A stretch of DNA of 64,000 bases from an uncultured Eubacteriales bacterium (GTDB taxonomy: Bacteria; Bacillota; Clostridia; Oscillospirales; Acutalibacteraceae): NCBI GenBank assembly GCA_900315255.1, contig OMYH01000024.1:740-64739 (forward strand). Direction: 5' to 3'. The position numbers and the translations under genes are program-made. Below the pieces are notes generated by a model. That model ran no database searches. It was not told where the DNA came from and saw only the letters and a program-made list of their open reading frames with translations. Positions 33,351-60,569 of the stretch are shown piece by piece (the first letter of the stretch is position 1; every line of letters starts with the position of its first letter).

Positions 33351-34787
33351 ATGGAAGCAAAACAAATTCTTTCCGTATTTATGAGTATTGCAATGCTGTG
33401 TCCTGCATGTATACCTGCAAATGCGGATACAACAGACAAGGAAACCGGAAAAACCGCCATCTACTACTTTCTCGCCCCCGATAACCGGTTCGACACAACA
33501 AAGGGTGCAAAAAACGAGGACATAGGATCATTCAACCGGAACGAAGACATCACCATGAAACCGTGGCTAGGCACAAAGATTAAACTCTCTCCCGAAACCG
33601 GTTTAAATATCTATAAAATAGAAAATATCCCCACGGAGTATACAAATATCGTCTTTAATTCATATTTCAATGTAAACATAAGCTCGCTGACAGAAGACAG
33701 ACCTTATGCGTGCCAGACAGACGACCTGACCACCACAGGCTGCAAGACAGGCGAATGCCCTTATGACAAAACGCTGACCACCGACAGCTTTGACGGCTGG
33801 ATATATGTCTGCAACTTAAACGACATTTACGACAATCCTGCCAACGTAAACAGCTGCACAGGCGGAGCATGGTTCACGCTTGATAATTACAGAAGCAGCA
33901 GCGATTATTACGGCACTTACGGTCTGACAGAAGATACAGACACCGGAACTTACCCCGGAACATACGGCGACTATGAATATGATCTGAACTCCGACAATAC
34001 CGTCACCATCACGAGTTATTCCGGCAGCGACTCCTATGTTAACGTACCGGAAGAGATCGATGGCAGGAAGGTAACGTGTATCGGCGACGAAGCCTTCAAA
34101 AACAATACTGCTATTAAAAGCCTTGATCTCCCGAAAAGCGTCACAACAATAGGCAATTCTTCCTTTGAGAACTGCACCGGAATGAAGAGCATTTTGGGAC
34201 CCGGCTTAACAAGCATAGGCGAATCGTCTTTTGCGGGGTGCAGCGGTTTTAACGGTATGACGTTTTATTCATCCATGTCGGAAATGGGACGCTGCGCAAT
34301 GGCAAATTGCTCGGGACTGGAACACCTTGTGTTTAAAGAGGGCATGACCGAAATTCCTGAATATGTATTTTGGAACTGTACGAATGTAAAAACGCTTACC
34401 ATCCCCGAAAGTTTAACGACGATCGGAGAATCCGCATTCGGACAATGCGCGGGCATAACCGAAATAAGCTATGCCGGTTCGGAGTCACAGTGGAAGCAGA
34501 TCACAATCGAAAGCGGTAATGAGTCTTTGAAAAATGCGGTTGTACATTACGGCAAGACAACATCAGACGTGATCTGCGGCGACGTTGACGGCGACGGCAA
34601 GATCTCTGCAAAGGACAGTATGACAGTTCAGCGTCATGTCGTCAAGATCAAAAAGCTCGGCGATAGCTTGCTTGCTGCCGCAGATGTAAACGGTGACGAT
34701 AAGGTAACCAACAAAGACTCTCTCGAGATACTGAGATTTACTATAAAACTGTCCAACAACGACAGAATAGGCAAACCGACAGCCTGA
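33351..34787 (+). CDS. Secreted BspA-type leucine-rich-repeat protein with a C-terminal type I dockerin
   Basis: It has a signal peptide. LRR units of the BspA type are present (IGDEAFKNNTAIKSLDLPKSVTTIGNSSFENCTGM...). The dockerin has duplicated Ca-binding segments GDVDGDGKISAKDSMTVQR and ADVNGDDKVTNKDSLEILR. Confidence 0.8.
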   Translation: MEAKQILSVFMSIAMLCPACIPANADTTDKETGKTAIYYFLAPDNRFDTTKGAKNEDIGSFNRNEDITMKPWLGTKIKLSPETGLNIYKIENIPTEYTNIVFNSYFNVNISSLTEDRPYACQTDDLTTTGCKTGECPYDKTLTTDSFDGWIYVCNLNDIYDNPANVNSCTGGAWFTLDNYRSSSDYYGTYGLTEDTDTGTYPGTYGDYEYDLNSDNTVTITSYSGSDSYVNVPEEIDGRKVTCIGDEAFKNNTAIKSLDLPKSVTTIGNSSFENCTGMKSILGPGLTSIGESSFAGCSGFNGMTFYSSMSEMGRCAMANCSGLEHLVFKEGMTEIPEYVFWNCTNVKTLTIPESLTTIGESAFGQCAGITEISYAGSESQWKQITIESGNESLKNAVVHYGKTTSDVICGDVDGDGKISAKDSMTVQRHVVKIKKLGDSLLAAADVNGDDKVTNKDSLEILRFTIKLSNNDRIGKPTA

Positions 34788-36277: not shown

Positions 36278-39200
36278 ATGTTACCAAAGTTCAGCGTCAG
36301 GAAACCTCTGACTGTTTTTGTTGCCGTTGTGCTTGTTATTGTACTGGGAGTTGTGTCATACCTCAATATGACGCCGAGCCTTTTTCCGAGTCTGGAGCTT
36401 CCATACATAATCATAGTTACAACTTACATAGGCGCAAGCCCCGAAGAAGTTGAAGCGACTGTCACCCGACCTCTTGAACAAACGATGGCGACGCTTGACA
36501 ACGTCAAGGAAATAACGTCAAGCTCCTCGGAAAACTACTCGATGGTATCTATCGAATTTGAGGATATTGTCAATATGGATACCGTTACCGTAGATCTCAA
36601 CAGCAAGCTGACACAGCTCACAGGCTCATGGGACGAAAAGGTCGGAGCGCCGTACATAATGAAAATCAACCCAAATATGCTGCCCGTTGCGATCGTTGCT
36701 GTCAGTAAGTCCGACAGCACGATATATGAACTGTCGGATTTCACGAAGGACGTTCTTGAGAATAAGCTTGAGGGTATCAACGGCGTAGCCTCGGTTTCCG
36801 TCGGCGGTATCGTGGAGCAGTCCGTTGAGGTGGTTTTGTCGGAGAATAAGATCAAGTCCGTGAACGATACGGTTCAGACTGCCGTCAAAAAGCAGTTCGC
36901 CGACGCCGAAAAAGAGCTTGACGACGCAAAGACTCAGCTCGAAGACGGTCTTGAGCAGGCAAAAACCGGCAAGGATGATATCGAAAAGGGCAAGGAGCTT
37001 TTAGACGAACAGCACAACGAGATAGCCTCTCAGCTTTCCGCAGCGGAGGCGGAAATATCTTCAAAAGAAAAGGAGCTGCTTGAAACAAAGCTCACTTTAG
37101 TCGACACTATCGCCGACCTCACATCGCAGAAGGAGCAGCTCACCACCACCCTTTCCGTCATGAAAGAGGTTCAGAAGGCAATGCACAGTATCCTTGACAG
37201 ACGTGACGATCTTCAGAATGATTACGACACCCTGAAGGCGCTGCAGGATTCCTACTCCGCTCTGCAGTCAAAGGACAGCGAGCTTCAGACTGCGCTTTCC
37301 GCTATCGAAACAGACTCCACACTCTCCGAGGACGACAGGAATAAAGCAGTAGAGGAATTCAAGAGCAGTCCCGAATACACGCAGACGAAAGCGTCGTTAG
37401 CCGAAACCGAAGCTCAGATGAACGCCAGGGGCGTTACTCCGCTGACCATAGATATTACAGTCCGTGCAACAAAGAGCGCGCTTGATCTCGCCAATTCGTC
37501 TTTAGACACAGTCAACACCGCTATTAAGGAATTAGGCACTTCATTTGAAACCATAGACGACGATGTGCAAAAGCTTGAAGACGGTCTTTCTCAGATGGAT
37601 GAAGCGATCAACACACTTTCTGAAACGATTGAACAGCTCGATGAGGGTGCGGTGACCATAAAAGAAGCAAAGACAGAGCTTGGCACACAGAAATCCCAGG
37701 CGGAATTTCAGATGACTTCTGCCGCAACCGATCTGAAAATTTCCGAAAACACCGTTAACAGCACGATCACACAGTTAGAGCAATCGCAAAAGGAGCTTGA
37801 CGAGGGCGTAAAGCAGCTCAACGAAACAAAAAAGGATACTCTAAAGCAGGCGGATATCACAAACACGATCACAATGGATATGATTTCTCAGATCCTGACC
37901 GCACAGAATTTCTCCATGCCCGCAGGCTATCTGACAGGCGAAGACGAAAATATGCTTGTTCGTGTAGGCGACAAATTCTCCGAAACTGACGATCTGACAA
38001 ATCTTCTGCTTGTTGACTTAGGCATTGATGACGTTGATCCTATCTATCTCTCAGATGTTGCCGACATTAACCTCGTTGATAACAGCGGCGAAATATACGC
38101 AAAGCTCAACGGCGATAACGGAGTTATGGTATCGTTTACAATGCAGTCTACTGCCGCTACCGCAGAGGTATCGGATAATATACACAAAGCGCTTGAAAAG
38201 CTCTCGGAGGAATACCCGGATCTCAGCTTCACCTTCTTGATGGATCAGGGCGATTACATTCATCTGATAGTGAATTCTGTCCTCAGCAATCTTATCTGGG
38301 GCGGTCTGTTCGCTATTATTATTCTTCTGTTCTTCCTGCGTGACATTCGTCCTACATTTATCATAGCTTGTTCTATACCAATAAGCGTTATTTTTGCGAT
38401 AGTGCTCATGTATTTCTCGGGAATCACGCTGAATCTTATATCACTGTCGGGTCTTGCCGTCGGTGTCGGTATGCTTGTTGACAACTCTGTTGTCGTAATA
38501 GAGAACATCTACCGACTCAGAAACAACGGCGCTACACCCGTTCAGGCGGCTGTTTCCGGCGCAGTTCAGGTCACAGGCGCTATAATAGCCTCTACCCTCA
38601 CAACGGTTGCGGTGTTTCTGCCGATCGTCTTTGTACACGGACTCACACGAACACTCTTCCAGGATATGGCGCTTACGATAGGTTATTCCCTGCTTGCAAG
38701 TCTTATAGTAGCGATCAGTCTTGTTCCCGCAATGGCGCAGGGGATGCTGAAGAAACAAAAAAAGAATAAGAAAGAAAAAGGCGAATCAAAGCTGTTCAAG
38801 GGCTACCGCAAATTGGCTTCGTTCACTTTGGATCACAAGGTTTTGCTCATACTCGGCTCGATCGTGCTGCTTGTGGGTTCTGCTTATCTTTCTCTGAAAA
38901 TGGGCTTCTCCTATATGCCGAGCATGGAAAGCACACAGATCTCAGTAAATGTAACAATGCCCGACGACGCCGATTTTGAATCCGCAACAAAAACTACCGA
39001 TGAAATTCTCAAACGTCTTGACACGGTAGAGGACATAAACACCGTTGGCGCCGTAGTAGGTTCAAACGTTCTGTCAAGTATTTCGATAGGCGGAGGCGGC
39101 GGTGACGATACTTCCGTATCGCTGTATGTTATACTCAATGATGAAGATAAGCTTACCCGACCCATTTCCGAGATATGCACAGAGATGGAAGAGAAATGCT

Positions 39201-40387
39201 CCGATCTCGACTGCGAGGTCACTGTTGACCCCTCGGGTATGGGCAGCATGATGTCAATGATGACGGGCGAAGGAATATCGATCAATGTTTTCTGCGACAA
39301 CTTTGACACTCTCCAGGAGGCTTCAACAATGATTGCCGACACACTGAACACAGTGGACGGAGCGCAGAACGCCTTCAACGGAATTGAAGACACCACACAG
39401 GAGCTTCGTATCAGCGTTGACAAAGAAAAGGCTATGAAAAAGGGGTTGACCGTTGCGCAGGTATTCATGGAAATTTCTGGCATGATGACAAGCGAAAAGC
39501 AGGCTACTCTGATTGAAACAGGCAGTGACAGTCTGACGGTACAGGTGGTAGATGGGGCGGCAAAGGGTCTGACGGAAAAAGACATCAGAAACCACATCAT
39601 CGAAACGACCGATATGAAGGGGGAAAAGATAACGGCAAAGCTGTCCGATATAGCCACGATCACAAAAGCAGACAGTCTGAACAATATTACAAGAATCGAT
39701 CAGAAGCGTTACCTCAATGTCACCGCAGATGTTGCCGAGGGCTTCAACTCAACGAATGTTGCAAATGCCGCAAAGACAGAAATAGATAAGCTCAATCTTC
39801 CCGATGGTGTAACATATGAGCTTACGGGATCGTACGAAACGACTATGGACGCAGTAATTCAGCTCGGAGAAATGCTCCTGCTTGCGGTAGCGTTCATCTA
39901 TCTGATAATGGTAGCGCAGTTCCAGTCGCTGCTGTCGCCGTTCATCATCATGTTCACTATCCCGCTTGCCTTCACGGGAGGATTTATCGCCCTGATAATA
40001 GCAGGACTTGACATGAGCGTTATTGCGATTATCGGATTTATTATGATGGCAGGAATAATTGTAAATAACGGTATCGTTCTTGTCGACTACATCAATCAGC
40101 TTCGTGCGGAGGGCATGGCAAAGCGAGAGGCGCTTATTGAAGCGGGCGTCACACGAATGCGGCCTATCTTCATGACGGCTCTCACAACGATCCTCGGTCT
40201 GTCGGTGATGGCATTCAGCCGTGATTCAAGCTCGGCTATGATGCAGCCTATTGCACTTGTATGTATAGGCGGACTTATCTACGCTACGATAATGACGCTG
40301 TTCGTCGTACCTGCAATATACGATATATTCAACAAAAAGGAAATCAGAGTTATAGATAAAAAAGAGCTTGAGATCTTAGACGATTGA
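36278..40387 (+). CDS. RND-superfamily efflux permease (AcrB/HAE-like) carrying an approximately 340-aa coiled-coil insertion in the first extracytoplasmic loop
   Basis: AcrB-like blocks lie at both ends: MLPKFSVRKPLTVFVAVVLVIVLG, LPYIIIVTTYIGASPEEVE, 12 predicted TMs, and GAIIASTLTTVAVFLPIVFV. Residues about 190-530 are heptad-like and rich in E, K, Q and L. No adjacent membrane-fusion protein gene is present. Confidence 0.8.
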   Translation: MLPKFSVRKPLTVFVAVVLVIVLGVVSYLNMTPSLFPSLELPYIIIVTTYIGASPEEVEATVTRPLEQTMATLDNVKEITSSSSENYSMVSIEFEDIVNMDTVTVDLNSKLTQLTGSWDEKVGAPYIMKINPNMLPVAIVAVSKSDSTIYELSDFTKDVLENKLEGINGVASVSVGGIVEQSVEVVLSENKIKSVNDTVQTAVKKQFADAEKELDDAKTQLEDGLEQAKTGKDDIEKGKELLDEQHNEIASQLSAAEAEISSKEKELLETKLTLVDTIADLTSQKEQLTTTLSVMKEVQKAMHSILDRRDDLQNDYDTLKALQDSYSALQSKDSELQTALSAIETDSTLSEDDRNKAVEEFKSSPEYTQTKASLAETEAQMNARGVTPLTIDITVRATKSALDLANSSLDTVNTAIKELGTSFETIDDDVQKLEDGLSQMDEAINTLSETIEQLDEGAVTIKEAKTELGTQKSQAEFQMTSAATDLKISENTVNSTITQLEQSQKELDEGVKQLNETKKDTLKQADITNTITMDMISQILTAQNFSMPAGYLTGEDENMLVRVGDKFSETDDLTNLLLVDLGIDDVDPIYLSDVADINLVDNSGEIYAKLNGDNGVMVSFTMQSTAATAEVSDNIHKALEKLSEEYPDLSFTFLMDQGDYIHLIVNSVLSNLIWGGLFAIIILLFFLRDIRPTFIIACSIPISVIFAIVLMYFSGITLNLISLSGLAVGVGMLVDNSVVVIENIYRLRNNGATPVQAAVSGAVQVTGAIIASTLTTVAVFLPIVFVHGLTRTLFQDMALTIGYSLLASLIVAISLVPAMAQGMLKKQKKNKKEKGESKLFKGYRKLASFTLDHKVLLILGSIVLLVGSAYLSLKMGFSYMPSMESTQISVNVTMPDDADFESATKTTDEILKRLDTVEDINTVGAVVGSNVLSSISIGGGGGDDTSVSLYVILNDEDKLTRPISEICTEMEEKCSDLDCEVTVDPSGMGSMMSMMTGEGISINVFCDNFDTLQEASTMIADTLNTVDGAQNAFNGIEDTTQELRISVDKEKAMKKGLTVAQVFMEISGMMTSEKQATLIETGSDSLTVQVVDGAAKGLTEKDIRNHIIETTDMKGEKITAKLSDIATITKADSLNNITRIDQKRYLNVTADVAEGFNSTNVANAAKTEIDKLNLPDGVTYELTGSYETTMDAVIQLGEMLLLAVAFIYLIMVAQFQSLLSPFIIMFTIPLAFTGGFIALIIAGLDMSVIAIIGFIMMAGIIVNNGIVLVDYINQLRAEGMAKREALIEAGVTRMRPIFMTALTTILGLSVMAFSRDSSSAMMQPIALVCIGGLIYATIMTLFVVPAIYDIFNKKEIRVIDKKELEILDD

Positions 40388-43215: not shown

Positions 43216-46200
43216 TTACTTTACTTTCCAGAGTTCCTTAGCGTACTGGAGGATCGTTCTGTCAGAGCTGAACTTACCTGCGTTAGCTACATTCATAAGG
43301 CACTTCTTGCCGAATGCTTCTCTGTCTGCATAATCTGCATTGACCTTGATCTTAGCCTCAACATAAGACGGGAGATCGAGGAGAATGAAGTAATGGTCGG
43401 GGTGATGCCACGAAGCGCCGTTCACAAGCGAGCTGTGAAGCTCTGCGAAGCTGCCCTCGCCATGTCTGCCACCGTCGCTGAATGTACCGTCGATAAGCGT
43501 GTCGATGACCTTCCTGATCTCGGGGTTACTGTCATAGATAGCTTTTGAAGAGTAAGAACCGTTAGCCTTAAGCTCGTCTATCTTCTCAACTCTTGCACCG
43601 AAGATATACTCGTTCTCCTCGCCTGCTTCCTGAGCGATCTCTACGTTAGCGCCGTCATATGTGCCGAGAGTAACTGCACCGTTGAGCATGAACTTCATGT
43701 TGCCTGTACCCGAAGCCTCTGTACCTGCTGTGGAGATCTGCTCGGAGATGTCTGCTGCCGTAACGATCTTCTCTGCATAGGATACGTTGTAGTTCTGTAC
43801 AAATACTACCTTGATCTTGTCGTTTACATCGGGATCATTGTTTACAAGATTGCCGATCTCATTGATGTACTTAATAATAGCCTTAGCTCTTGCATAGCCC
43901 GGAGCTGCCTTTGCGCCGAAGATAAATGCTGTCGGCTGCCAGTTCGGAAGCTCGCCGTTCTTGAGCTTGAAGTAGATATCCATAATGGAGAATGCGTTGA
44001 GCAGCTGTCTCTTGTACTCGTGCAGACGCTTAACCTGGATATCAAAGATAAATGTAGGATCGAGCTTGATGCCCTCGTGCTTTTCGATGTAATCTGCAAG
44101 CTGCTTCTTCTTCTCAAGCTTGATAGCGTTGAATCTCTTGATCGTGTTCGCGTCAAGATGTGCCTCGAGCTTTTTGAGCTCGTCAAGATTTCTCAGATAA
44201 TCGCTGCTGCCGATCGTTTCTGTCAAAAGCTCAGACAACTCAGGGTTGCATAGACCGAGCCAGCGGCGCTGTGTGATACCGTTAGTCTTGTTCTGGAAAC
44301 GCTCGGGGTAGATTTTGTACCAATCGTTGAGAACATCGTTCTTGAGGATCTCGGTATGGATCCATGCAACACCGTTAGTGTAGCTTGATCCGTAAACAGC
44401 CAGTCTTGCCATATGTACAACACCGCCGTCAATGATCTTCATGTTGCTGATATCACACTTCGGCGAAAGCTCCTTGACAAGTCTGTCTGCGATCCTCTCG
44501 ATAATAGCGTAAACCTCGGGGATAACCGACTTCATAAGGTCGATGTTCCACTTCTCGAGAGCCTCTGCCATTACCGTGTGGTTTGTATATGCAAATGTCT
44601 TCTGTGCGATCTCGAATGCAACGTCAAACGATACGCCATCAAGCATAAGCAGACGGATAAGCTCGGGGATAGATACAATCGGGTGAGTATCGTTGAGCTG
44701 GATTGCAGCGTGCTCGGAGAACTTGCTGTAATCATTGCCGTACTTGCTTCTGTATCTCTTGAGAATATCCTGAAGGGAAGCAGAACAGAAGAAATACTGC
44801 TGCTTTAATCTCAGTACCTTACCCTCGTGTCTGTTGTCGTTCGGATAAAGAACCTTTGTGATATTCTCTGCGTCGTTCTTAGCCTGAACAGAACCGTTAT
44901 AATCAAAGTTATTGAACTTGAGGAAATCGAAGTTCTCGAGCGGCTCAGCCTCCCACAGACGAAGTGTGTTGATGTTCTCCGTGCCGTAGCCGATAACTGC
45001 CATATCATAAGGAACAGCCTTGACTGTCTGATCCTTGAACTTAACCTCTACCGTATCTTCGTTTCTTCTGATACACCACGGATCGCCGAAACGCTGCCAG
45101 TCGTCTGCTGTTTCTACCTGGAAGCCGTCAACTATGCTCTGCTTGAACAAGCCGTACTTGTAGCGGATTCCGTAGCCGTCAAGCGGTACGTCCTGTGTAG
45201 CGGCAGAATCAAGGAAGCACGCTGCCAGACGTCCCAGACCGCCGTTGCCGAGCGCTGCATCGTCTATTTCCTCAAATACATTGATGTCAATACCCTTCTT
45301 TGACAGGATAGACTTAACATCATCGAGAATATCCAGGCAGTACAGATTGTTATACATCATGCGTCCCATCAGGAACTCAGCCGAGAAGTAATATGCGCGT
45401 CTGTTGTCTGCGTGTACGTTCTTAGCCTTTGCCCAGCGGTCTGCGATCTCGCCCATTACAGCCTTGCCAAGCTCCTCGTGCAGCTCGGGTACCGTAAGTT
45501 CCTCGATCTCCTTGCAGTAATCTGTCTTTGCTGCAAGCTCAAGTCTTTCGAGTATTGAGTTTTTCTCCGTTTTCTTTTCCATTTTCTTTTCTTCCTCCAG
45601 CCTGTTATAGGTTTTGGTCAACTTTCTGATTTTTGCGGCAAGACCACCGGCAGCATAATCCTTGCGGACACGCCACTCCCAGTTTCCGCCGAGTGTTGAC
45701 GGAATATTCATTCTTGCCTCACTGCCAAGACCTAAGTAATCCTGCATCTGAATAATACAGTAATCGCTTACGCTCTCGTATGCAGTTCTTATTATACCCC
45801 AGTTGAACGGCTCGTCCTTACCCATTTTGCAGTATTCTCTTGCGAATTTAACACAATGCTCGGGAGCGGATTCCATCCAACCGATAAGAGTATCGTTGTC
45901 ATGCGTGCCCGAATATACAACACAGTTCGGTGTGTATGTATGGGGCAGATAGTTGTTCTCCTCGTTTGAGTCGAATGCAAATTCAAGCACCTTCATTCCC
46001 GGATAGCCCGAATCCTTCAGCAGCTTGATAACGCCCGGAGTCATAGTGCCGAGATCCTCGGCAATGATCGGCAGCTCACCCAGCGCTTTTCTCATGAGAT
46101 TGAAGAACTCAATGCCCGGTCCGTCCATCCACTTACCGTTGATAGCGTTCTCTGCAGGGAATGGGATCGCATAGTAATCATTGAATGCACGGAAATGATC

Positions 46201-47094
46201 TATTCTTGTTATATCAAACAGTTCGCTTGCAGCCTTAATGCGGGCGAACCACCACTTGTAGCCTGTTTCTTTGAGGTACTCCCAGTTGTACAGAGGGTTG
46301 CCCCAGAGCTGACCCGTTGCCGAGAAATAATCCGGCGGACATCCTGCAACACAGACAGGCTGTCTGTTTTCGTCAAGCCAGAACACCTCGGGATTAGCCC
46401 ATGTGTCTGCGCTGTCCATAGCAACATAGATAGGCATATCGCCGATTATCTCTATGCCGAGCCCGTTAACATAAGCACGGAAAGCCTCCCACTGCTCATA
46501 GAATTTGTACTGTACAAACTTCCAGAACGAGATCTCCTTCGACAGCTTCTTTTTATATGACTTAACGCCCTCGTCTGTTCTCAGACGGATAGACTCGTCC
46601 TCCCACTCTGTCCATGCCTTGTTGTCAAAAGAACCCTTGACAGCCATATACAAAGCGTAGTTATCAAGCCATTTTTTATTTTTTGTACACCATGCCTTGA
46701 ATGCCTTTTTTGCGTCTTCAAGAGCAGGATCTCTTTTATTGAAGTTCTTGAAAGCGATCCTCAGAACAGAAAATCTGTTGTTGTAGATCTTCTCATAATC
46801 CACCTTTTCGTCATTGTCGCCCCAATCAAGCGCCTTGTAATCCTCAGGCTTAAGCAGACCCTCGCCGCACAGTGTGTCGAGGTCTATCATATACGGATTG
46901 CCTGCGAATGTGGAGAACGACTGGTACGGTGAATCGCCGTAGCTCGTAGGACCTACCGGAAGGATCTGCCAGTACTTCTGACCCGCACCCTTTAAGAAGT
47001 CCGCAAATTCATAAGCCTCCTTGCCTATTGTACCGATACCGTAGCGTGTAGGCAGAGATGTTATAGGCATAAGTATACCTGCTGCTCTGGACAT
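43216..47094 (-). CDS. Fusion protein: 4-alpha-glucanotransferase (MalQ, residues about 1-500) plus alpha-glucan/maltodextrin phosphorylase (GlgP/MalP, residues about 505-1292)
   Basis: The N-terminal part begins GILMPITSLPTRYGIGTIG...YWQILPVGPT...SPYQSFS (GH77). The C-terminal part has YFSAEFLMGR, GNGGLGRLAACFLDS and the PLP-lysine block TAGTEASGTGNMKFMLNGA (GT35). It is a single uninterrupted ORF. Confidence 0.85.
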   Translation of the reverse strand: MSRAAGILMPITSLPTRYGIGTIGKEAYEFADFLKGAGQKYWQILPVGPTSYGDSPYQSFSTFAGNPYMIDLDTLCGEGLLKPEDYKALDWGDNDEKVDYEKIYNNRFSVLRIAFKNFNKRDPALEDAKKAFKAWCTKNKKWLDNYALYMAVKGSFDNKAWTEWEDESIRLRTDEGVKSYKKKLSKEISFWKFVQYKFYEQWEAFRAYVNGLGIEIIGDMPIYVAMDSADTWANPEVFWLDENRQPVCVAGCPPDYFSATGQLWGNPLYNWEYLKETGYKWWFARIKAASELFDITRIDHFRAFNDYYAIPFPAENAINGKWMDGPGIEFFNLMRKALGELPIIAEDLGTMTPGVIKLLKDSGYPGMKVLEFAFDSNEENNYLPHTYTPNCVVYSGTHDNDTLIGWMESAPEHCVKFAREYCKMGKDEPFNWGIIRTAYESVSDYCIIQMQDYLGLGSEARMNIPSTLGGNWEWRVRKDYAAGGLAAKIRKLTKTYNRLEEEKKMEKKTEKNSILERLELAAKTDYCKEIEELTVPELHEELGKAVMGEIADRWAKAKNVHADNRRAYYFSAEFLMGRMMYNNLYCLDILDDVKSILSKKGIDINVFEEIDDAALGNGGLGRLAACFLDSAATQDVPLDGYGIRYKYGLFKQSIVDGFQVETADDWQRFGDPWCIRRNEDTVEVKFKDQTVKAVPYDMAVIGYGTENINTLRLWEAEPLENFDFLKFNNFDYNGSVQAKNDAENITKVLYPNDNRHEGKVLRLKQQYFFCSASLQDILKRYRSKYGNDYSKFSEHAAIQLNDTHPIVSIPELIRLLMLDGVSFDVAFEIAQKTFAYTNHTVMAEALEKWNIDLMKSVIPEVYAIIERIADRLVKELSPKCDISNMKIIDGGVVHMARLAVYGSSYTNGVAWIHTEILKNDVLNDWYKIYPERFQNKTNGITQRRWLGLCNPELSELLTETIGSSDYLRNLDELKKLEAHLDANTIKRFNAIKLEKKKQLADYIEKHEGIKLDPTFIFDIQVKRLHEYKRQLLNAFSIMDIYFKLKNGELPNWQPTAFIFGAKAAPGYARAKAIIKYINEIGNLVNNDPDVNDKIKVVFVQNYNVSYAEKIVTAADISEQISTAGTEASGTGNMKFMLNGAVTLGTYDGANVEIAQEAGEENEYIFGARVEKIDELKANGSYSSKAIYDSNPEIRKVIDTLIDGTFSDGGRHGEGSFAELHSSLVNGASWHHPDHYFILLDLPSYVEAKIKVNADYADREAFGKKCLMNVANAGKFSSDRTILQYAKELWKVK

Positions 47095-56368: not shown

Positions 56369-56396
56369 TTGACAAAATCTGTATTTATGTTATAAT
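56369..56396 (+). promoter_or_regulatory. Consensus sigma-A promoter for tRNA-Gln
   Basis: TTGACA (56369..56374), a 16-nt spacer, then TATAAT (56391..56396). The -10 ends 12 nt before the tRNA 5' end. Confidence 0.7.
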
Positions 56397-56408: not shown

Positions 56409-56482
56409 TGGGGAATTGTGTAACGGTAGCACGACAGACTCTGACTCTGTTTGTTGGGGTTCGAATCCCTATTCCCCAGCCA
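56409..56482 (+). tRNA. tRNA-Gln (anticodon CTG)
   Basis: TGGGGAATTGTGTAACGGTAGCACGACAGACTCTGACTCTGTTTGTTGGGGTTCGAATCCCTATTCCCCAGCCA has a 7-bp acceptor stem TGGGGAA/TTCCCCA. The anticodon loop is CT-CTG-AC. The T-arm is GGGGTTCGAATCCC, and CCA is encoded. Confidence 0.9.
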
Positions 56483-56644: not shown

Positions 56645-56673
56645 TTGACAAACAAGAATCTGTTTGATATAAT
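56645..56673 (+). promoter_or_regulatory. Consensus sigma-A promoter for the CAT-anticodon tRNA
   Basis: TTGACA (56645..56650), a 17-nt spacer, then TATAAT (56668..56673). Confidence 0.7.
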
Positions 56674-56690: not shown

Positions 56691-56767
56691 GGACCATTAG
56701 CTCAGTTGGTTAGAGCAACCGGCTCATAACCGGTAGGTCCCGGGTTCGAGTCCCTGATGGTCCACCA
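56691..56767 (+). tRNA. tRNA with anticodon CAT (Met, or more likely lysidine-modified Ile2)
   Basis: GGACCATTAGCTCAGTTGGTTAGAGCAACCGGCTCATAACCGGTAGGTCCCGGGTTCGAGTCCCTGATGGTCCACCA has acceptor stem GGACCAT/ATGGTCC and anticodon loop CT-CAT-AA. The Ile-like D-arm and body hint at tRNA-Ile2, but this cannot be decided by eye. Confidence 0.85.
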
Positions 56768-56779
56768 AAGCAAAAAATT

Positions 56780-56811
56780 CCTGTCGAGTATGTCGGCAGG
56801 ATTTTTTTTTT
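56780..56811 (+). terminator. Rho-independent terminator after the CAT tRNA
   Basis: Stem CCTGTCGA / TCGGCAGG is followed by A and a run of T residues (T10). Confidence 0.75.
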
Positions 56812-56874
56812 AAATACAAGAAAACACTCCTTATATTCGCCCGGGAATGACGGTGTAAGGAGTGTTTTAGTTAT

Positions 56875-56969
56875 TTAAGGAACCACTGATTAAATCACGT
56901 CCTTCGGACTGAGCACCAAATTTGCTTGCATCTTTTTGTCAAATTGCACTCAAAATCCTTGAAATACGT
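56875..56969 (-). mobile_element. MITE-like repeat copy 7: arm B only (95 bp), ending at the central motif
   Basis: TTAAGGAACCACTGATTAAATCACGTCCTTCGGACTGAGCACC...CCTTGAAATACGT is identical to arm B of copies 3 and 5. No arm A follows. The kinase/LRR coding sequence abuts the centre. Confidence 0.9.
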
Positions 56970-59900
56970 TTCCGAACCGGTGTAACATACAGCTGTTAAA
57001 TCTGTACATTGATAAAAAGCAGCATATCCGATATCTGTCACACTTTTCGATATTTCCACCAATGTCAGAGAATCACAATACATAAAAGAATAACTGCCAA
57101 TATTCGTAACATTTTTAGAAATAACTACCTTTTCTAAATAAGTGGAACCTCGAAAAGCACTCAGGTCTATTTCTTTCACACTATCCGGAATAATGTAAGT
57201 CTTGTCATTTTTCGACTGAGGATAAAGAATCAATTTACTCATATCTTTGTTAAACAAAACCTCGTCCTTAGACGAATAATACTTGTTTTGACTGTCAACA
57301 TCTATGCTTGTTAATTTGGAACAGCGATTAAAAGCATATCTCCCTATACTAACCACATTACCCGGAATATTGACTGCCGAAAAGCCATCACATTCAGCAA
57401 ATGCACTCGATTCAATGCTCGTCAGTTTTGCAGAGAACGTTATGTCTATCAGATTATCGCAATCAAAAAACGCACAATAACCTATTTCAGTAACACTATC
57501 GGGCATTTTATATGCTGACAACGGGTTTCCGGCTGGATATGCCATTAAAATTGTCTTATCTTTATTGAACAATACACCGTCTTGAGAAGAATAGTACTTG
57601 TTTTTGTTGTCGACATCTATGCTTTTTATGCTTTTGCAATCACAAAACATACCATCGGCAATCTCAGCAATATTCGCCGGAACTGTAAACTTTTCCGCTT
57701 TTTTTCCTGCAGGATATGCTATCAGTTCAGTCATGTTTTTATCATACAATACTCCGTCTTCAGATTTATATGATTTATTATTGCTGTCGACTTTTATTTC
57801 CGATAGATTATCGCATTCCCTAAATACACCCGATCCAATATATGTAACATTCGCAGGGATATTTACGTTAGTTAAACCGTTGCAATAGCAAAAAGCGTTA
57901 GAAAGAATTGTTGTTACACTTTCGGGAATTTCAAGGCTTGATAAGCTTATACATGAATTGAATGAGTCACTGCAAATTGTTCGAACACTGTCGGCTATTT
58001 CTATATCAGATAAGTTTGTAAACCAACTAAACGCACCTGCTCCAATGCTCTTTACTCCATATTCAACAACGACCTTTTTCACATTGTTTTCGTAACTAAC
58101 ATAACCGGAATTTGAACCCAAAGAAGCATCATAATCCCACATATATCCTTTTCCGTAAATGTACAGCGTACCGCTCTCGTAAAATGCCCACTTTACATTA
58201 TCGGATGGTCCCGATTCGCTTTCATTATCATAGTACTCATTACTCTGTCCGCAGTTGCCCTCTGCAATCAGCTTTGTTTTTTCTTTTTCACGCGGCGACG
58301 GCGGTATATCGGTGTCGATCTCATCGTCTTCTTCCGAATAATAGTCTTCCACCCAATATTCGGAGTCGTCCCAATAGCTCTCACTGTCTTCATACATAAA
58401 CCAATATTCATCAGTATATCTGTCTGTCTCGCTTTCTTCTTCGAAACTTTCTTCACCGGCATAGGAATTAGTTCGGGAATTGGATTTTTTGATAATATAA
58501 CTGATATAATCAATATCCGAATCATAAACCTCGTCTTTATATGGTTGTGTATCCGTGATATATATCCCGATACCGACAACCATCGAAACAATAATAACAA
58601 CCGCCGCAAGCCACAATATAACAATTCCTGTTTGTCTTGTCATAAACTTAGTCTTTGCTCGTTCGTTCTTGTTCAACACCTCAATCTCAAACACTCCCGG
58701 CTCACGCTTTGCAGCTTTTGGAGTTATCGTTTCATTATTATCGAACATCTCGTCATCAGGATCGATCTCCACAAAGATGTTATCCGTTGCTCCGGGTATC
58801 CCCGACAGCGTTGTGTATGTCTTAGGTTTAGTTTCCGGTTTGATCGCCGTTTCAGGTATCACGGAAAACGCTGTCTGCAACTTCTGCTTGAATTCTTTAA
58901 CAGGCAAAACTGTCTGTGACTTCGGCTTCGGCAAAGGTTCGCTTTTCTGCTTCGGTTCTTCGACAGGCAAAGCTGTCTGCGACTTCGGCATCTGCAAGGG
59001 TTCGCTTTTCTGCTTCGGTTCTTCGACAGGCAAAGCTGTCTGCGACTTCGGCTTCGGCAGAGTTTCGCTTTTCTGCTTTGGTTCTTCGACAGGCAAAGCT
59101 GTCTGTGACTTTGGCTTTGGCAGAGATTCTCTTTTCTCCTTCGGCTGTTCAACAGGCATAGATATCTGTGATTTAGGCTTTGGTAACGGTTCGCTTTTCT
59201 GCTTCGGTTCTTCAACAGGCAGTGCTATCAGTGATTTAGGCTTTGGTAACGGTTCGCTTTTCTCCTTCGGCTCTTCAACAGGCATAGATATCTGTGACTT
59301 TGGCTTTGGCAGAGATTCACTCTTCTCCTTCTGCTCTTCAACAGGCAGTGCTATCAGTGATTTAGGCTTTGGTAACGGTTCGCTCTTCTCCTTCGGCTGT
59401 TCAACAGACATAGATATCTGTGATTTAGGCTTTGGTAACGGTTCGCTCTTCTCCTTCTGCTCTTCAACAGGCAGTGCTATCTGTGATTTAGGCTTTGGTA
59501 ACGGTTCGCTTTTCTCCTTCTGCTCTTCAACAGGCATAGATATCTGTGACTTAGGCTTCGGGTCTTCATTAGGCAATACCGTCTGAGACCTCGGCTTTGA
59601 CAGTGGTTCGCTCTTATTTTTTTGTTTTTCGATAAATGAAATATATGACCGATGATTGCGTTTTATCTTCTCGACACTCTCGATCCTCTCGTCCTGCAGC
59701 AGTGCCGATTTGAACTCGCCCATCGTCTGAAAACGGTCAGCAGATCTTATACTTAACGCCTTCAGAATTGCGTCTTCTTTAGACTTCGAAATATTAATCC
59801 CCAGCTCATGCGGCGGAACAAGCTCATCATCTTCGATCCTTTCAAACGAATCGGGGGGACGCATTCCCGCTATCGCAAAATAAAACGTAGCTCCCAAACT

Positions 59901-60569
59901 GTACACATCGGTATATGGTCCCTGCTTGCTCTTTCGGGAATATTGCTCCTTGGGGGCAAAACCGGGCTTGAGAATAATATCAAGACTCCTGCTCTTGTCA
60001 CCAAGACTGTACCTTGCTGCACCAAAATCAAGCAGAATGACCTTCCCGTTCCTCTTGATACAAATATTGTCGGGCGTTACATCACGATGTATTATTCCCT
60101 TTTTGTGTACCGAAGCAAGTGCGTCCATCACTGGTACTACTACTCTTTGAGCGTCCATGACGCTGATTCTTCCACCCTGCTGCTTGATGAAGACATCAAA
60201 GCTCATCCCTTCGATGTAATCCATAACAAAATATGCCGTTCCGTTTTCTTCAAAGTAGCTATAGATGCGAACAACTCCGCTGTTATCAATGAATCTTGCA
60301 AGTGTTTCGGCCTCTTTCAAAAAGAGTTTTCTGCCATAGAGATAATTCTCCCCACGCTCGCCGGGATAAGGAAAAACATAATTGCTTTTTCTATAAGATA
60401 ATGTTTCAGGAAAGTATTCTTTTATTGCAAAAATCCTTCCGCTTTTATATTCCCTAACTTTGTATGTAATGCCGAATCCGCCCTGTCCGAGAGTGTTTTG
60501 AATAATATACTGCCCCGCAAGAATAGTTCCGTTCGGTAACGCAAAAGGAAAAGTTTCATTTATAGCCAT
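56895..60569 (-). CDS. Hanks-type Ser/Thr protein kinase, 21-aa repeat linker, single TM, acidic segment and extracellular BspA-type LRR domain; the C-terminal 24 aa come from repeat copy 7
   Basis: Kinase motifs GQGGFG, FAIKEY, HRDVTPDN and DFGAAR are present. About 11 repeats of KSEPLPKPKSQ(I/T)ALPVEE(P/Q)K(Q/E) follow. The TM is GIVILWLAAVVIIVSMVVGIGIYI. LRR units (SIGAGAFSWFTNLSDIEIADSVRTICSDSFNSC...) resemble those of the protein at 33351..34787. Confidence 0.85.
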   Translation of the reverse strand: MAINETFPFALPNGTILAGQYIIQNTLGQGGFGITYKVREYKSGRIFAIKEYFPETLSYRKSNYVFPYPGERGENYLYGRKLFLKEAETLARFIDNSGVVRIYSYFEENGTAYFVMDYIEGMSFDVFIKQQGGRISVMDAQRVVVPVMDALASVHKKGIIHRDVTPDNICIKRNGKVILLDFGAARYSLGDKSRSLDIILKPGFAPKEQYSRKSKQGPYTDVYSLGATFYFAIAGMRPPDSFERIEDDELVPPHELGINISKSKEDAILKALSIRSADRFQTMGEFKSALLQDERIESVEKIKRNHRSYISFIEKQKNKSEPLSKPRSQTVLPNEDPKPKSQISMPVEEQKEKSEPLPKPKSQIALPVEEQKEKSEPLPKPKSQISMSVEQPKEKSEPLPKPKSLIALPVEEQKEKSESLPKPKSQISMPVEEPKEKSEPLPKPKSLIALPVEEPKQKSEPLPKPKSQISMPVEQPKEKRESLPKPKSQTALPVEEPKQKSETLPKPKSQTALPVEEPKQKSEPLQMPKSQTALPVEEPKQKSEPLPKPKSQTVLPVKEFKQKLQTAFSVIPETAIKPETKPKTYTTLSGIPGATDNIFVEIDPDDEMFDNNETITPKAAKREPGVFEIEVLNKNERAKTKFMTRQTGIVILWLAAVVIIVSMVVGIGIYITDTQPYKDEVYDSDIDYISYIIKKSNSRTNSYAGEESFEEESETDRYTDEYWFMYEDSESYWDDSEYWVEDYYSEEDDEIDTDIPPSPREKEKTKLIAEGNCGQSNEYYDNESESGPSDNVKWAFYESGTLYIYGKGYMWDYDASLGSNSGYVSYENNVKKVVVEYGVKSIGAGAFSWFTNLSDIEIADSVRTICSDSFNSCISLSSLEIPESVTTILSNAFCYCNGLTNVNIPANVTYIGSGVFRECDNLSEIKVDSNNKSYKSEDGVLYDKNMTELIAYPAGKKAEKFTVPANIAEIADGMFCDCKSIKSIDVDNKNKYYSSQDGVLFNKDKTILMAYPAGNPLSAYKMPDSVTEIGYCAFFDCDNLIDITFSAKLTSIESSAFAECDGFSAVNIPGNVVSIGRYAFNRCSKLTSIDVDSQNKYYSSKDEVLFNKDMSKLILYPQSKNDKTYIIPDSVKEIDLSAFRGSTYLEKVVISKNVTNIGSYSFMYCDSLTLVEISKSVTDIGYAAFYQCTDLTAVCYTGSETYFKDFECNLTKRCKQIWCSVRRT
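58890..59625. repeat. 63-bp coding tandem repeat array (about 11.5 units) in the kinase juxtamembrane linker
   Basis: On the plus strand, units such as CTTCGGTTCTTCGACAGGCAAAGCTGTCTGCGACTTCGGCTTCGGCAGAGTTTCGCTTTTCTG recur head to tail with subfamily variation. Confidence 0.9.

Follow-up and report, generated by a model that had tools for sequence, protein, structure and literature searches.

Transmembrane Hanks-type kinases of Gram-positive bacteria such as PrkC, PknB and StkP join the kinase through a juxtamembrane linker and a single TM helix to an extracellular sensor of PASTA repeats, and they are activated by ligand-promoted dimerisation. PpkA, the kinase of the threonine phosphorylation pathway in type VI secretion, is known from Proteobacteria with a double membrane (Serratia PpkA-294, PDB 5hnv, and P. 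aeruginosa). Its N-terminal kinase is followed by one TM helix and a C-terminal part outside the cytoplasm, with a periplasmic vWA-type domain. It sits in T6SS clusters with PppA and Fha. PpkA is a working kinase activated via dimerisation and autophosphorylation (PMC10482370). M. tuberculosis PknD (NHL beta-propeller ectodomain) and other non-PASTA bacterial STKs couple the kinase to a repeat-type sensor, as does the protein described here. An LRR-kinase combination was already listed for bacteria in 2005, a P. aeruginosa STYK (Krupa & Srinivasan, PMC1262709), but that entry is a single protein for which only the LRRs are stated, with no BspA class, topology or functional data. LRRs go unmentioned in a 2025 atlas of bacterial STK families, and our literature search found no description of a bacterial kinase whose ectodomain is a BspA-type LRR.

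Proteins of the BspA/TpLRR/PcpA class, which include the ruminococcal LRR-dockerin proteins, are secreted or are anchored to the wall, S-layer or cellulosome via a signal peptide and a dockerin, SLH or T9SS tail, and have no cytoplasmic signalling domain. LRR-dockerin proteins are abundant in ruminococcal cellulosomes; R. flavefaciens FD-1 has 28 LRR modules (PMC2930009). In eukaryotes, LRR receptors such as the plant receptor-like kinases FLS2 and BRI1 and their animal counterparts start with a signal peptide and the extracellular LRR, cross the membrane through one TM helix and end in a cytoplasmic Hanks-superfamily Ser/Thr kinase, of the RLK/Pelle (or RTK) clade.

Domain layout, kinase and topology

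In the window, the 64,000-nucleotide stretch analysed here, a single ORF of 1224 aa with an ATG start occupies 56895..60569 on the reverse strand, to which the coordinates of its parts given below also refer. A first-pass annotation had read from it a kinase, Pro/Lys/Glu repeats, a TM helix, an acidic segment and LRRs, in that order. This layout was borne out by Pfam, TRF, hydropathy and composition analyses, and in the HMM searches both Pkinase and LRR_5 scored above their Pfam cut-offs.

The cytoplasmic Ser/Thr kinase domain (residues ~14-292; 59694..60530) was recognised from its Pfam match, the 5hnv match and alignment. Pfam Pkinase (PF00069) aligned to residues 22-239 with 101.6 bits (cut-off 31.7). 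The G-loop GQGGFG, K50, E86, the HRD aspartate D163, N168 and the DFG aspartate D181 were all present and formed invariant columns across 23 aligned LRR-fusion kinases; the invariance of these residues argues for selection on kinase activity. The catalytic loop reads HRDVTPDN, with Thr165 at the canonical Lys position, and departs from the HRDxKxxN pattern. In a motif census of the clade, this position was occupied by S (68), T (32), A (19) or K (16), and PpkA shares the Lys-less loop (HRDISLDN). By analogy with PpkA, the kinase is predicted to be catalytically competent, although the threonine counts against this.

The closest solved kinase domain was that of PpkA (5hnv; residues 10-289, E 1e-52, 182 bits), whose overall plan the protein also shares, and the matches to StkP and PknB were much weaker (E 1e-19). 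Pfam searches of the ORF gave no match to PASTA (PF03793) nor, unlike PpkA, to VWA, and the PASTA kinase model NF033483 aligned with the kinase part only (120.3 bits; cut-off 450). The first-pass annotation had described an LRR sensor "instead of PASTA", implying a PrkC-type kinase, and this description does not fit the PpkA-like relationship. A kinase of PrkC/PknB type stripped of its PASTA domains was likewise rejected, since the kinase sits in the PpkA-like clade. As judged from sequence comparison, it is a Hanks-type member of this large clade of single-pass kinases, which bears many interchangeable ectodomains.

Between the kinase and the membrane lies a cytoplasmic juxtamembrane linker of eleven tandem 21-aa units of type KSQISMPVEEQKEKSEPLPKP, rich in Pro, Lys, Glu and Ser (residues 319-565; 58875..59615). 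TRF resolved the underlying DNA as a 63-bp unit in 10.6 copies with 86% matches at 58894..59558, and the number of repeats was equal across independent assemblies. Residues 291-641 contain 17% K, 16% P and 14% E, and the linker is probably disordered. The only hydrophobic segment of the ORF above threshold, with a Kyte-Doolittle peak of 3.09, follows at residues ~645-671 (GIVILWLAAVVIIVSMVVGIGIYI; 58557..58637), in agreement with the single TM helix originally claimed. This kinase-then-TM layout, with one helix at the same relative position, recurred in 119 of 120 homologues, P0022 being the exception. The helix leads to an acidic, aromatic-rich, low-complexity stalk (residues 701-755; 58305..58469) with 24 D/E, 13 Y/W/F and 1 K/R among its 55 residues; in homologues its place is taken by different stalks, either acidic or rich in Ser/Thr.

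The helix is flanked by basic residues on its N-terminal side (NKNERAKTKFMTRQ) and by acidic residues on its C-terminal side. Hydropathy and the positive-inside rule thus predict an N-in/C-out topology. The stalk and LRRs are predicted to lie outside the cell because of these flank charges, because the kinase needs cytoplasmic ATP and because the nearest LRR relatives are surface proteins; the prediction is consistent with the extracellular LRR sensor proposed in the first reading.

The kinase gene is surrounded by glyQS, a MATE gene, tRNAs, spoVA and rnf, and these neighbours were identical across assemblies. Unlike T6SS clusters, in which ppkA is accompanied by PppA and Fha, and unlike PASTA kinase loci with their adjacent PP2C phosphatase, the 64-kb window has neither a PP2C nor an FHA gene, and no other kinase gene. 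The analysis yielded no candidate for a ligand, a substrate, a phosphatase or an FHA partner, which weighs against a receptor function.

The LRR ectodomain and its relatives

Residues ~775-1200 (56970..58247) form a BspA-type LRR_5 solenoid with an N-terminal beta cap, as identified by Pfam, AF2 and Foldseek. LRR_5 (PF13306) matched in three stretches with 220.4 bits (cut-off 27.7). The AF2 model of residues 752-1224, of the kind suggested in the first-pass annotation, was a confident LRR solenoid (pLDDT 92.2, pTM 0.89), with high confidence except in the N-terminal blocks and the tail. The best PDB fold matches found by Foldseek, 4h09 (5e-19), 4gt6, 4cp6 (pneumococcal PcpA), 4fs7 and 6mlx (TpLRR), were surface proteins and adhesins of the BspA class, and the structural neighbours included cell-surface proteins of F. 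prausnitzii and E. ventriosum. NCBIfam also matched the LRR adhesin HupY/LrrG. Collectively, the model and its matches show that the ectodomain is a bona fide BspA-type LRR_5 solenoid, which is predicted to serve as an extracellular ligand-binding module. LRRs of this class have mostly been described as adhesins and not as signalling receptors, which speaks against a receptor reading.

Database LRR_5 proteins aligned with the ectodomain mostly at 30-46% identity (261-535 bits), and the nearest of them bear dockerin, SLH, Flg_new or T9SS-tail modules. In contrast to these proteins, the solenoid here is tethered through a TM helix to a kinase, and a Pfam search found no dockerin (PF00404) in the kinase protein. 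An LRR_5 and Dockerin_1 surface protein is encoded elsewhere in the window (33351..34787, forward strand; Pfam E 8.4e-31 and 3.4e-10, respectively). It had been regarded as a paralogue of the LRR module; the two align at 21-26% identity (BLASTP E 1e-12), and database LRR_5 proteins are much closer. By this comparison it is a distant relative from the same domain family and no close paralogue. The associated suggestion of a glycan or host ligand for the LRR module is purely conjectural.

The original comparison with plant and animal receptor kinases stands for the functional logic, which is the same, and falls short in polarity and LRR class. Unlike the eukaryotic receptors, the protein has its kinase at the N terminus (1-292) and its LRR at 775-1200, and it lacks a signal peptide. 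Its repeats are of the BspA/TpLRR type as opposed to the plant-specific 24-residue type, and the kinases it matches best (PpkA, StkP, PknB) come from bacteria. The resemblance is convergent and does not reflect common descent.

Recurrence and origin of the architecture

LRR_5-bearing kinases were found in at least 23 protein clusters distributed over at least 6 kinase lineages, although LRR_5 occurred on only ~1% of the sampled members of the PpkA-like clade. NCBI names these clusters only "leucine-rich repeat protein". The first reading had known of no characterised bacterial kinase with an LRR ectodomain; this holds in that no studied example was found, but the architecture itself recurs. 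The layout is thus real, recurrent and rare, and is a variant among known bacterial receptor kinases, not a new type of system.

The nearest kinase domains, at 65-67% identity, lacked LRRs, and most of the nearest LRRs lacked kinases, with only the fusions P0002 and P0003 scoring comparably. Because of this reciprocal pattern, and because at least 6 kinase lineages carry the fusion, comparison strongly supports the view that the ectodomain was gained by domain shuffling from a large pool of LRR_5 surface proteins, in a kinase clade whose ectodomains are freely swapped. A split version was found at locus L053, where a separate TM-anchored LRR_5 gene lies between two kinases of the PpkA-like clade.

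More speculatively, the single-pass PpkA-like kinases found in Clostridia of the gut and rumen, which often form tandem arrays, might be surface receptors whose repertoire is diversifying, in convergence with the receptor-like kinases of plants. Their ectodomains would be swapped with a pool of surface modules (LRR_5, F5/8 type C, TcaA NTF2-like, MORN, DUF5050-like and TPR), with LRR_5 captured independently at least 6 times. We regard this reading as doubtful. If it were true, the LRR_5 members would be true receptors that recognise patterns or contact, with proteins of plant fibre, other microbes, phage or the host as their ligands.

Proposed function and alternative explanations

We favor, with moderate confidence, the interpretation that the protein is a receptor-type Ser/Thr kinase with one membrane pass, from an uncultured Acutalibacteraceae bacterium (Clostridia) of the rumen whose cells presumably have only one membrane. 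In this interpretation it is activated by clustering upon contact or binding of an LRR ligand, and it obtained its ectodomain by shuffling. The kinase and the long disordered Pro/Lys/Glu linker would lie in the cytoplasm, one helix would cross the membrane, and the acidic stalk would hold the ~430-aa BspA-type LRR_5 solenoid at the cell surface. Like other BspA-class LRRs, the solenoid would bind a ligand, for which a protein or some other macromolecule attached to a surface is the most probable candidate, and binding would lead to clustering or dimerisation of receptors. Trans-autophosphorylation on the activation loop, which has been shown for PpkA and for kinases of the PknB type, would follow, and the activated kinase would phosphorylate cytoplasmic targets encoded away from the kinase locus. 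We infer ligand binding, activation by clustering and the existence of such substrates from these parallels.

The protein could instead be mainly an adhesin or anchor, in which LRR_5 attaches the cell to a partner such as plant fibre, cellulosome components, other microbes or host mucus while the kinase reports contact or only modulates adhesion from within the cell, with neither a diffusible ligand nor classical receptor activation. Consistent with this idea, its structural neighbours are adhesins and surface proteins (PcpA, TpLRR and those of F. prausnitzii and E. ventriosum), NCBIfam recognises HupY/LrrG, dockerin or SLH modules occur on the surface proteins that are its nearest LRR_5 relatives, and LRR-dockerin proteins abound in ruminococcal cellulosomes (PMC2930009). 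However, a simple adhesin would have no need of a 640-aa cytoplasmic part, and K50, E86, D163, N168 and D181 are invariant in 23 of 23 aligned fusions, a sign of selection on kinase activity. We consider a predominantly adhesive role unlikely; it also overlaps the receptor interpretation, since contact sensing is receptor signalling too. A far less probable function is that of an anti-phage defence kinase of PD-T4-6, Stk2 or MADS type, whose LRR would detect a phage component at the surface. PADLOC models for PD-T4-6 (E 7.5e-43) and mad6 (E 2.2e-38) matched the kinase domain, NCBIfam gave weak matches to MADS6 and PglW, and tandem arrays with fast ectodomain turnover in the kinase clade would suit such a role. 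Yet all of these matches were limited to the generic kinase domain and fell far short of the NCBIfam cut-offs, with MADS6 at 112.7 against 460, and the match to PpkA (182 bits) was stronger. The neighbours are housekeeping genes, and no defence island or mobile context was seen around the kinase gene.

Whichever function applies, the make-up and order of the domains, the fold class and the integrity of the gene are shown by the data. The first-pass annotation had raised the prospect of an assembly chimera, with a break near 58560. Such a chimera would have fused a kinase gene with one for an LRR surface protein. The supposed junction falls in low-complexity sequence, and the LRR part has a GC content of ~0.36, against ~0.46 in the repeat and kinase parts; we found no evidence in support of a chimera. 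Against it, at least 7 contigs of rumen metagenome assemblies carry the same 1228-aa gene at full length, each time between glyQS and tRNA-Met/tRNA-Gln/spoVA/rnf. These included STEW18/STEW19 scaffolds and k141, k127 and k87 contigs, which come from different assemblers and samples. At least 22 other clusters share the kinase-TM-LRR_5 order, and the probability of a chimera is negligible.

The window copy nevertheless differs from the common allele by a 172-bp deletion, mapped to the base, with its junction after base 56969. The deletion takes out the native, conserved LRR C-terminal cap (EKEWKKVTVGANNESLTSAVMHYDSNINI, up to the stop codon) and ~88 bp of intergenic DNA, and it leaves a non-native tail of 24 residues with a stop codon (56895..56969), as determined by comparison with the common allele. 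The window allele may thus be impaired; alternatively, the deletion may have arisen in assembly. That this copy is a damaged and possibly non-functional allele, or a local assembly error, with an ectodomain that might misfold when uncapped, seems quite improbable as an account of the locus, though several observations point that way: the 1224-aa variant was found on one contig only, as against at least 7 for the 1228-aa variants; the tail was modelled at pLDDT 40-46; contigs of several assemblies end in exactly the deleted stretch; and in one assembly (L085) the gene is split into 358 aa and 863 aa. Such damage would concern this allele alone and not the nature of the gene family, and the AF2 solenoid remains confident up to the junction. 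Compared with the 1228-aa allele P0001, the window ORF showed 3 differences over 1204 aligned residues, all at 1201-1204, where the non-native tail begins. The 1200 residues before the tail are identical, so any damage would be very recent.

Domain layout, topology and ectodomain fold

The kinase-LRR gene (56895..60569, minus strand) was listed as a single 1224-aa ORF with an ATG start and an AGGA-type ribosome-binding site about 10 nt upstream. This one ORF matched the Pfam profiles Pkinase (residues 22-239; 101.6 bits against a cut-off of 31.7) and LRR_5 (three stretches; 220.4 bits against 27.7), bearing out the kinase and LRR layout described in the first-pass annotation. Neither PASTA, VWA nor dockerin was found in the protein by Pfam. 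Tandem Repeats Finder placed 10.6 copies of a 63-bp unit at 58894..59558, and the repeat linker of the protein was composed of eleven 21-aa units (KSQISMPVEEQKEKSEPLPKP and variants) at residues 319-565, with an overall linker composition of 17% K, 16% P and 14% E. The acidic segment cited earlier was present at residues 701-755, where 24 of 55 positions are D/E, 13 of 55 are Y/W/F and one is basic. The GC content of the LRR-coding part (56750..58250; ~0.35-0.37) was lower than that of the repeat and kinase parts (58750..60250; ~0.41-0.48), which fits an ectodomain acquired from another gene pool.

Only one segment was hydrophobic in a Kyte-Doolittle scan (approximately residues 645-671; peak 3.09), in agreement with the single TM helix reported previously. 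This helix is flanked by basic residues on its N-terminal side (NKNERAKTKFMTRQ) and by acidic residues on its C-terminal side (TDTQPYKDEVYDSDIDY), an N-terminal signal peptide is absent, and a kinase requires cytoplasmic ATP. Together, these features give good support to a predicted N-in/C-out orientation with the LRR outside the cell. The LRR module has its nearest relatives among surface proteins with dockerin, SLH, Flg_new, T9SS-tail, Big_2 or FN3 modules, and both these relatives and the charge of the helix flanks support the outside location originally predicted. The layout of a kinase followed by one TM helix was shared by 119 of the 120 best homologous protein clusters, the exception (P0022) having no TM helix.

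Modelling of the ectodomain with AlphaFold2, proposed as a check in the first-pass annotation, yielded an LRR solenoid. The model, covering residues 752-1224 and built on 61 homologues, was confident (pLDDT 92.2, pTM 0.89) and showed a regular beta-solenoid capped by beta structure at its N-terminus. The leading PDB matches found by Foldseek were all of the BspA/TpLRR class, and included 4h09 from Eubacterium ventriosum (E 5e-19), the Faecalibacterium prausnitzii cell-surface protein 4gt6, pneumococcal PcpA (4cp6), 4fs7 from Bacteroides ovatus and TpLRR (6mlx). The classical LRR receptors Toll, TLR9 and LGR5 were matched only at E ~1e-4 to 1e-3. TM-scores of the Foldseek matches were modest (0.37-0.49), as expected for solenoids that differ in length and curvature. 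The dockerin protein encoded at 33351..34787 (LRR_5 and Dockerin_1 by Pfam), previously called a paralogue, shares the domain family of the kinase ectodomain but, at an identity of only 21-26% (E 1e-12), is not a close paralogue of it. LRR-dockerin proteins are a known and abundant class in ruminococcal cellulosomes (PMC2930009).

Kinase class and recurrence of the fusion

The catalytic hallmarks of the kinase (GQGGFG, K50, E86, HRD D163, N168 and DFG D181) were invariant across an alignment of 23 kinase-LRR proteins. The catalytic loop, HRDVTPDN (residues 161-168; window ~60054..60077), lacks the canonical Lys of HRDxKxxN. This Lys was replaced by T, S or A in 119 of the 120 best homologues (P0007 being the exception), and kinase ORFs of the 80 species-level genome loci listed carried S (68), T (32), A (19) or K (16) at this position. 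The corresponding loop of PpkA, a type VI secretion kinase, reads HRDISLDN. The absent Lys is thus a trait of the PpkA-like clade of single-pass kinases. Literature searches on the Lys-less motifs HRDVTPDN and HRDISPDN returned nothing relevant.

The description of an LRR in place of PASTA domains had implied a PrkC-type kinase with an exchanged ectodomain. The absence of PASTA stood; the implied kinase type did not. When all PDB sequences were searched, the best match by far was the PpkA kinase domain (5hnv; E 1e-52, 182 bits), with StkP, PknB and PknA next at E ~1e-19, and the PASTA-kinase model NF033483 scored 120 against a cut-off of 450. These sequence comparisons rule out a PrkC-type kinase and place the protein in the PpkA-like clade. 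PpkA itself is catalytically active and is turned on by dimerisation and autophosphorylation (PMC10482370), making catalytic competence of the kinase-LRR protein plausible by analogy.

Pkinase and LRR_5 were combined in 23 of the 120 best clusters from a collection of 5.8 billion proteins, with a TM helix between the two in all 23; the architecture is therefore not unique, as the first-pass annotation had left possible. Two fusion clusters carry NCBI names, both "leucine-rich repeat protein" (Acutalibacteraceae; unclassified Ruminococcus). In the other best clusters, the same kinase is joined to MORN, PF16472 or TPR modules or lacks a recognised ectodomain. Among the 139 kinase ORFs listed from 80 species-representative loci, a set that does not include the window's own species, Pfam identified a true LRR_5 fusion only in L022, or roughly 1% of the kinase ORFs in these loci. 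Two further loci had been flagged as LRR fusions by a custom LRR HMM and BLAST; by Pfam, L064 encodes a PASTA plus Flg_new kinase and L066 has no LRR. Other ectodomains among the listed ORFs were TcaA NTF2-like, F5/8 type C, and PASTA with Flg_new, and 32 of the 80 loci contained 2-6 kinase ORFs. A representative search with residues 1-1200 was uninformative on fusion count, its best 150 matches all being giant multi-repeat LRR_5 proteins.

The window kinase domain was closest (65-67% identity) to kinases without LRRs, and LRR-fused kinases formed six or more separate groups, each with LRR-free kinases as next neighbours. All matches listed in an ectodomain-only search were of 826 aa or less, possibly excluding long fusions; bit scores were hence compared locally. 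In this comparison, the window ectodomain scored 261-535 bits against kinase-free LRR_5 surface proteins, whereas its scores with the LRR parts of most other fusions were only 51-225 bits. Collectively, the nearest kinases lacking LRRs, the nearest LRRs mostly lacking kinases and the separate groups indicate that LRR_5 modules were captured repeatedly and independently by an ectodomain-shuffling kinase clade. The fusion also has a split counterpart in a tandem array of three genes from a Clostridiales MAG (L053; 6902..11379), in which a separate gene for a 314-aa TM-anchored LRR_5 protein lies between two clade kinases, the first with a TcaA NTF2-like and the last with an F5/8 type C ectodomain. 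The kinase-LRR_5 architecture is thus recurrent but rare, already present in databases and apparently unstudied.

Precedents and a proposed receptor model

Literature searches on BspA/LRR_5 with kinase, on Hanks kinases with LRR ectodomains and on Hanks, LRR and PASTA combinations found nothing relevant. One Ser/Thr kinase with LRRs, from Pseudomonas aeruginosa, appears without further detail in a survey of 2005 (PMC1262709), and an atlas from 2025 covering 42 bacterial STK families, in which a kinase with a C-terminal TM is the commonest architecture, does not mention LRRs. A BspA-type LRR receptor kinase is therefore undescribed within the literature searched, although absence there is no proof; the earlier statement that no bacterial example had been characterised holds to that extent.

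To our knowledge, what is understood of Hanks-type receptor kinases in bacteria comes almost entirely from PASTA kinases and a few others (PknD, PpkA). PASTA kinases sense the cell wall, the LRR solenoid is a classic protein-recognition module, and variation in the ectodomains of bacterial STKs is to be expected. The best-supported reading of the kinase-LRR protein is a receptor-type kinase. In this model, the acidic stalk would hold the extracellular BspA-class LRR solenoid off the membrane, the solenoid would bind a macromolecular ligand or surface, and clustering would lead to trans-autophosphorylation and so to activation of the PpkA-like kinase. The repeat linker, which is rich in Ser/Thr, may act as a spacer or, more speculatively, as a docking and phosphorylation platform. 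The protein belongs among the single-pass Hanks receptor kinases of bacteria, in which sensors are exchangeable.

A kinase-tethered LRR would allow a monoderm gut anaerobe to couple the recognition of a macromolecule outside the cell directly to Ser/Thr phosphorylation. Components of plant fibre or the cellulosome, neighbouring cells, phage and host molecules are among the candidate targets; nothing in the analysis points to one specific function, and practical value will remain limited until a cultivable relative yields a ligand or substrate. The system is attractive for what would be a clean example of convergence with plant LRR receptor kinases. The repeated, independent capture of LRR_5 within a single kinase clade is a second attraction and suggests that the combination is useful rather than accidental. 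The PpkA-like clade also offers natural ectodomain swaps for experiments.

Allele integrity and genomic context

The common 1228-aa allele (P0001) differed from the window protein by 3 mismatches in 1204 aligned residues, all at 1201-1204, where a non-native tail begins. This near-identical alignment spanned the entire repeat region and the kinase/TM/LRR junctions. P0001 or its fragments occurred on many contigs from differing rumen metagenome assemblies (STEW18 and STEW19 scaffolds; k141, k127 and k87 contigs), with a constant gene order of MATE, glyQS, kinase-LRR, tRNA-Met, tRNA-Gln, spoVAC/AEB and rnfCDGEAB. An assembly chimera near 58560, a possibility raised in the first-pass annotation, is ruled out by the match across the junctions and by the same flanks in different assemblies.

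The last 24 residues of the window protein (TYFKDFECNLTKRCKQIWCSVRRT) were unmatched in P0001, which ends in EKEWKKVTVGANNESLTSAVMHYDSNINI, the same type of sequence as the end of the window's LRR-dockerin protein ("...YAGSESQWKQITIESGNESLKNAVVHY"). Relative to locus L001 (~8460..8630), the window carries a 172-bp deletion with its junction after 56969 and a microhomology of only 1 bp. Lost with the deletion were the final 28 codons of the gene, its stop codon and ~88 bp of intergenic DNA. As a result, the ORF runs into former intergenic DNA, yielding the unrelated 24-aa tail and its stop (56895..56969), for which model pLDDT was 40-46 as compared with >90 for the solenoid. A frameshift is ruled out, the native tail being encoded in no other frame. 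The 1224-aa variant is on record from only one contig (65,997 bp); no gene record for the exact product was found, and its sequence is present in the protein collection. Contigs of three other assemblies break in the same stretch. The window copy may thus have suffered slight damage, or the deletion may reflect a local error of assembly; neither affects the gene family as such. On another rumen scaffold (L085; ENA ERZ28612999 scaffold_20880), the gene is called as 358 aa (kinase) and 863 aa (remainder), broken at the start of the 63-bp repeat array, a break that may stem from misassembly or from genuine disruption.

The closest named relatives of the window's GroEL were from Acutalibacteraceae (90% identity), followed by Clostridia, Ruminococcus sp. 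and Oscillospiraceae. Contigs with the kinase-LRR gene came from cattle rumen metagenomes, and SpoVA, Rnf and the dockerin protein are also encoded in the window. On these grounds, the organism is an uncultured rumen member of Oscillospirales, presumably bounded by a single membrane. Genes for a PP2C phosphatase, an FHA protein or a second kinase are absent from the 64-kb window. An anti-phage defence kinase was considered, as the PADLOC models PD-T4-6 and mad6 gave matches; these covered the generic kinase domain only, and this role was rejected on genomic context, the neighbours being housekeeping genes with no support for a defence island.

Several other features of the window were recorded. 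Two sigma-70-type promoter matches (12/12 perfect, extended -10 TG) at 56369..56396 and 56645..56673 (plus strand) lie directly upstream of tRNA-Gln (56409..56482) and tRNA-Met (56691..56767), respectively, and each tRNA is followed by a terminator-like hairpin. A 1292-aa ORF of the MalQ-GlgP fusion type (43216..47094, minus strand) joins a GH77 4-alpha-glucanotransferase (residues 9-479) to a full glycogen/starch phosphorylase (residues 598-1291). The 1689-aa ORF at 8341..13410 (minus strand), with five DUF11/DUF7507 repeats, probably encodes a large cell-surface protein. Finally, an AcrB/RND-type transporter ORF (36278..40387, plus strand) is unusually long at 1369 aa, its best ACR_tran match covering residues 531-1351 and leaving a long N-terminal part outside.
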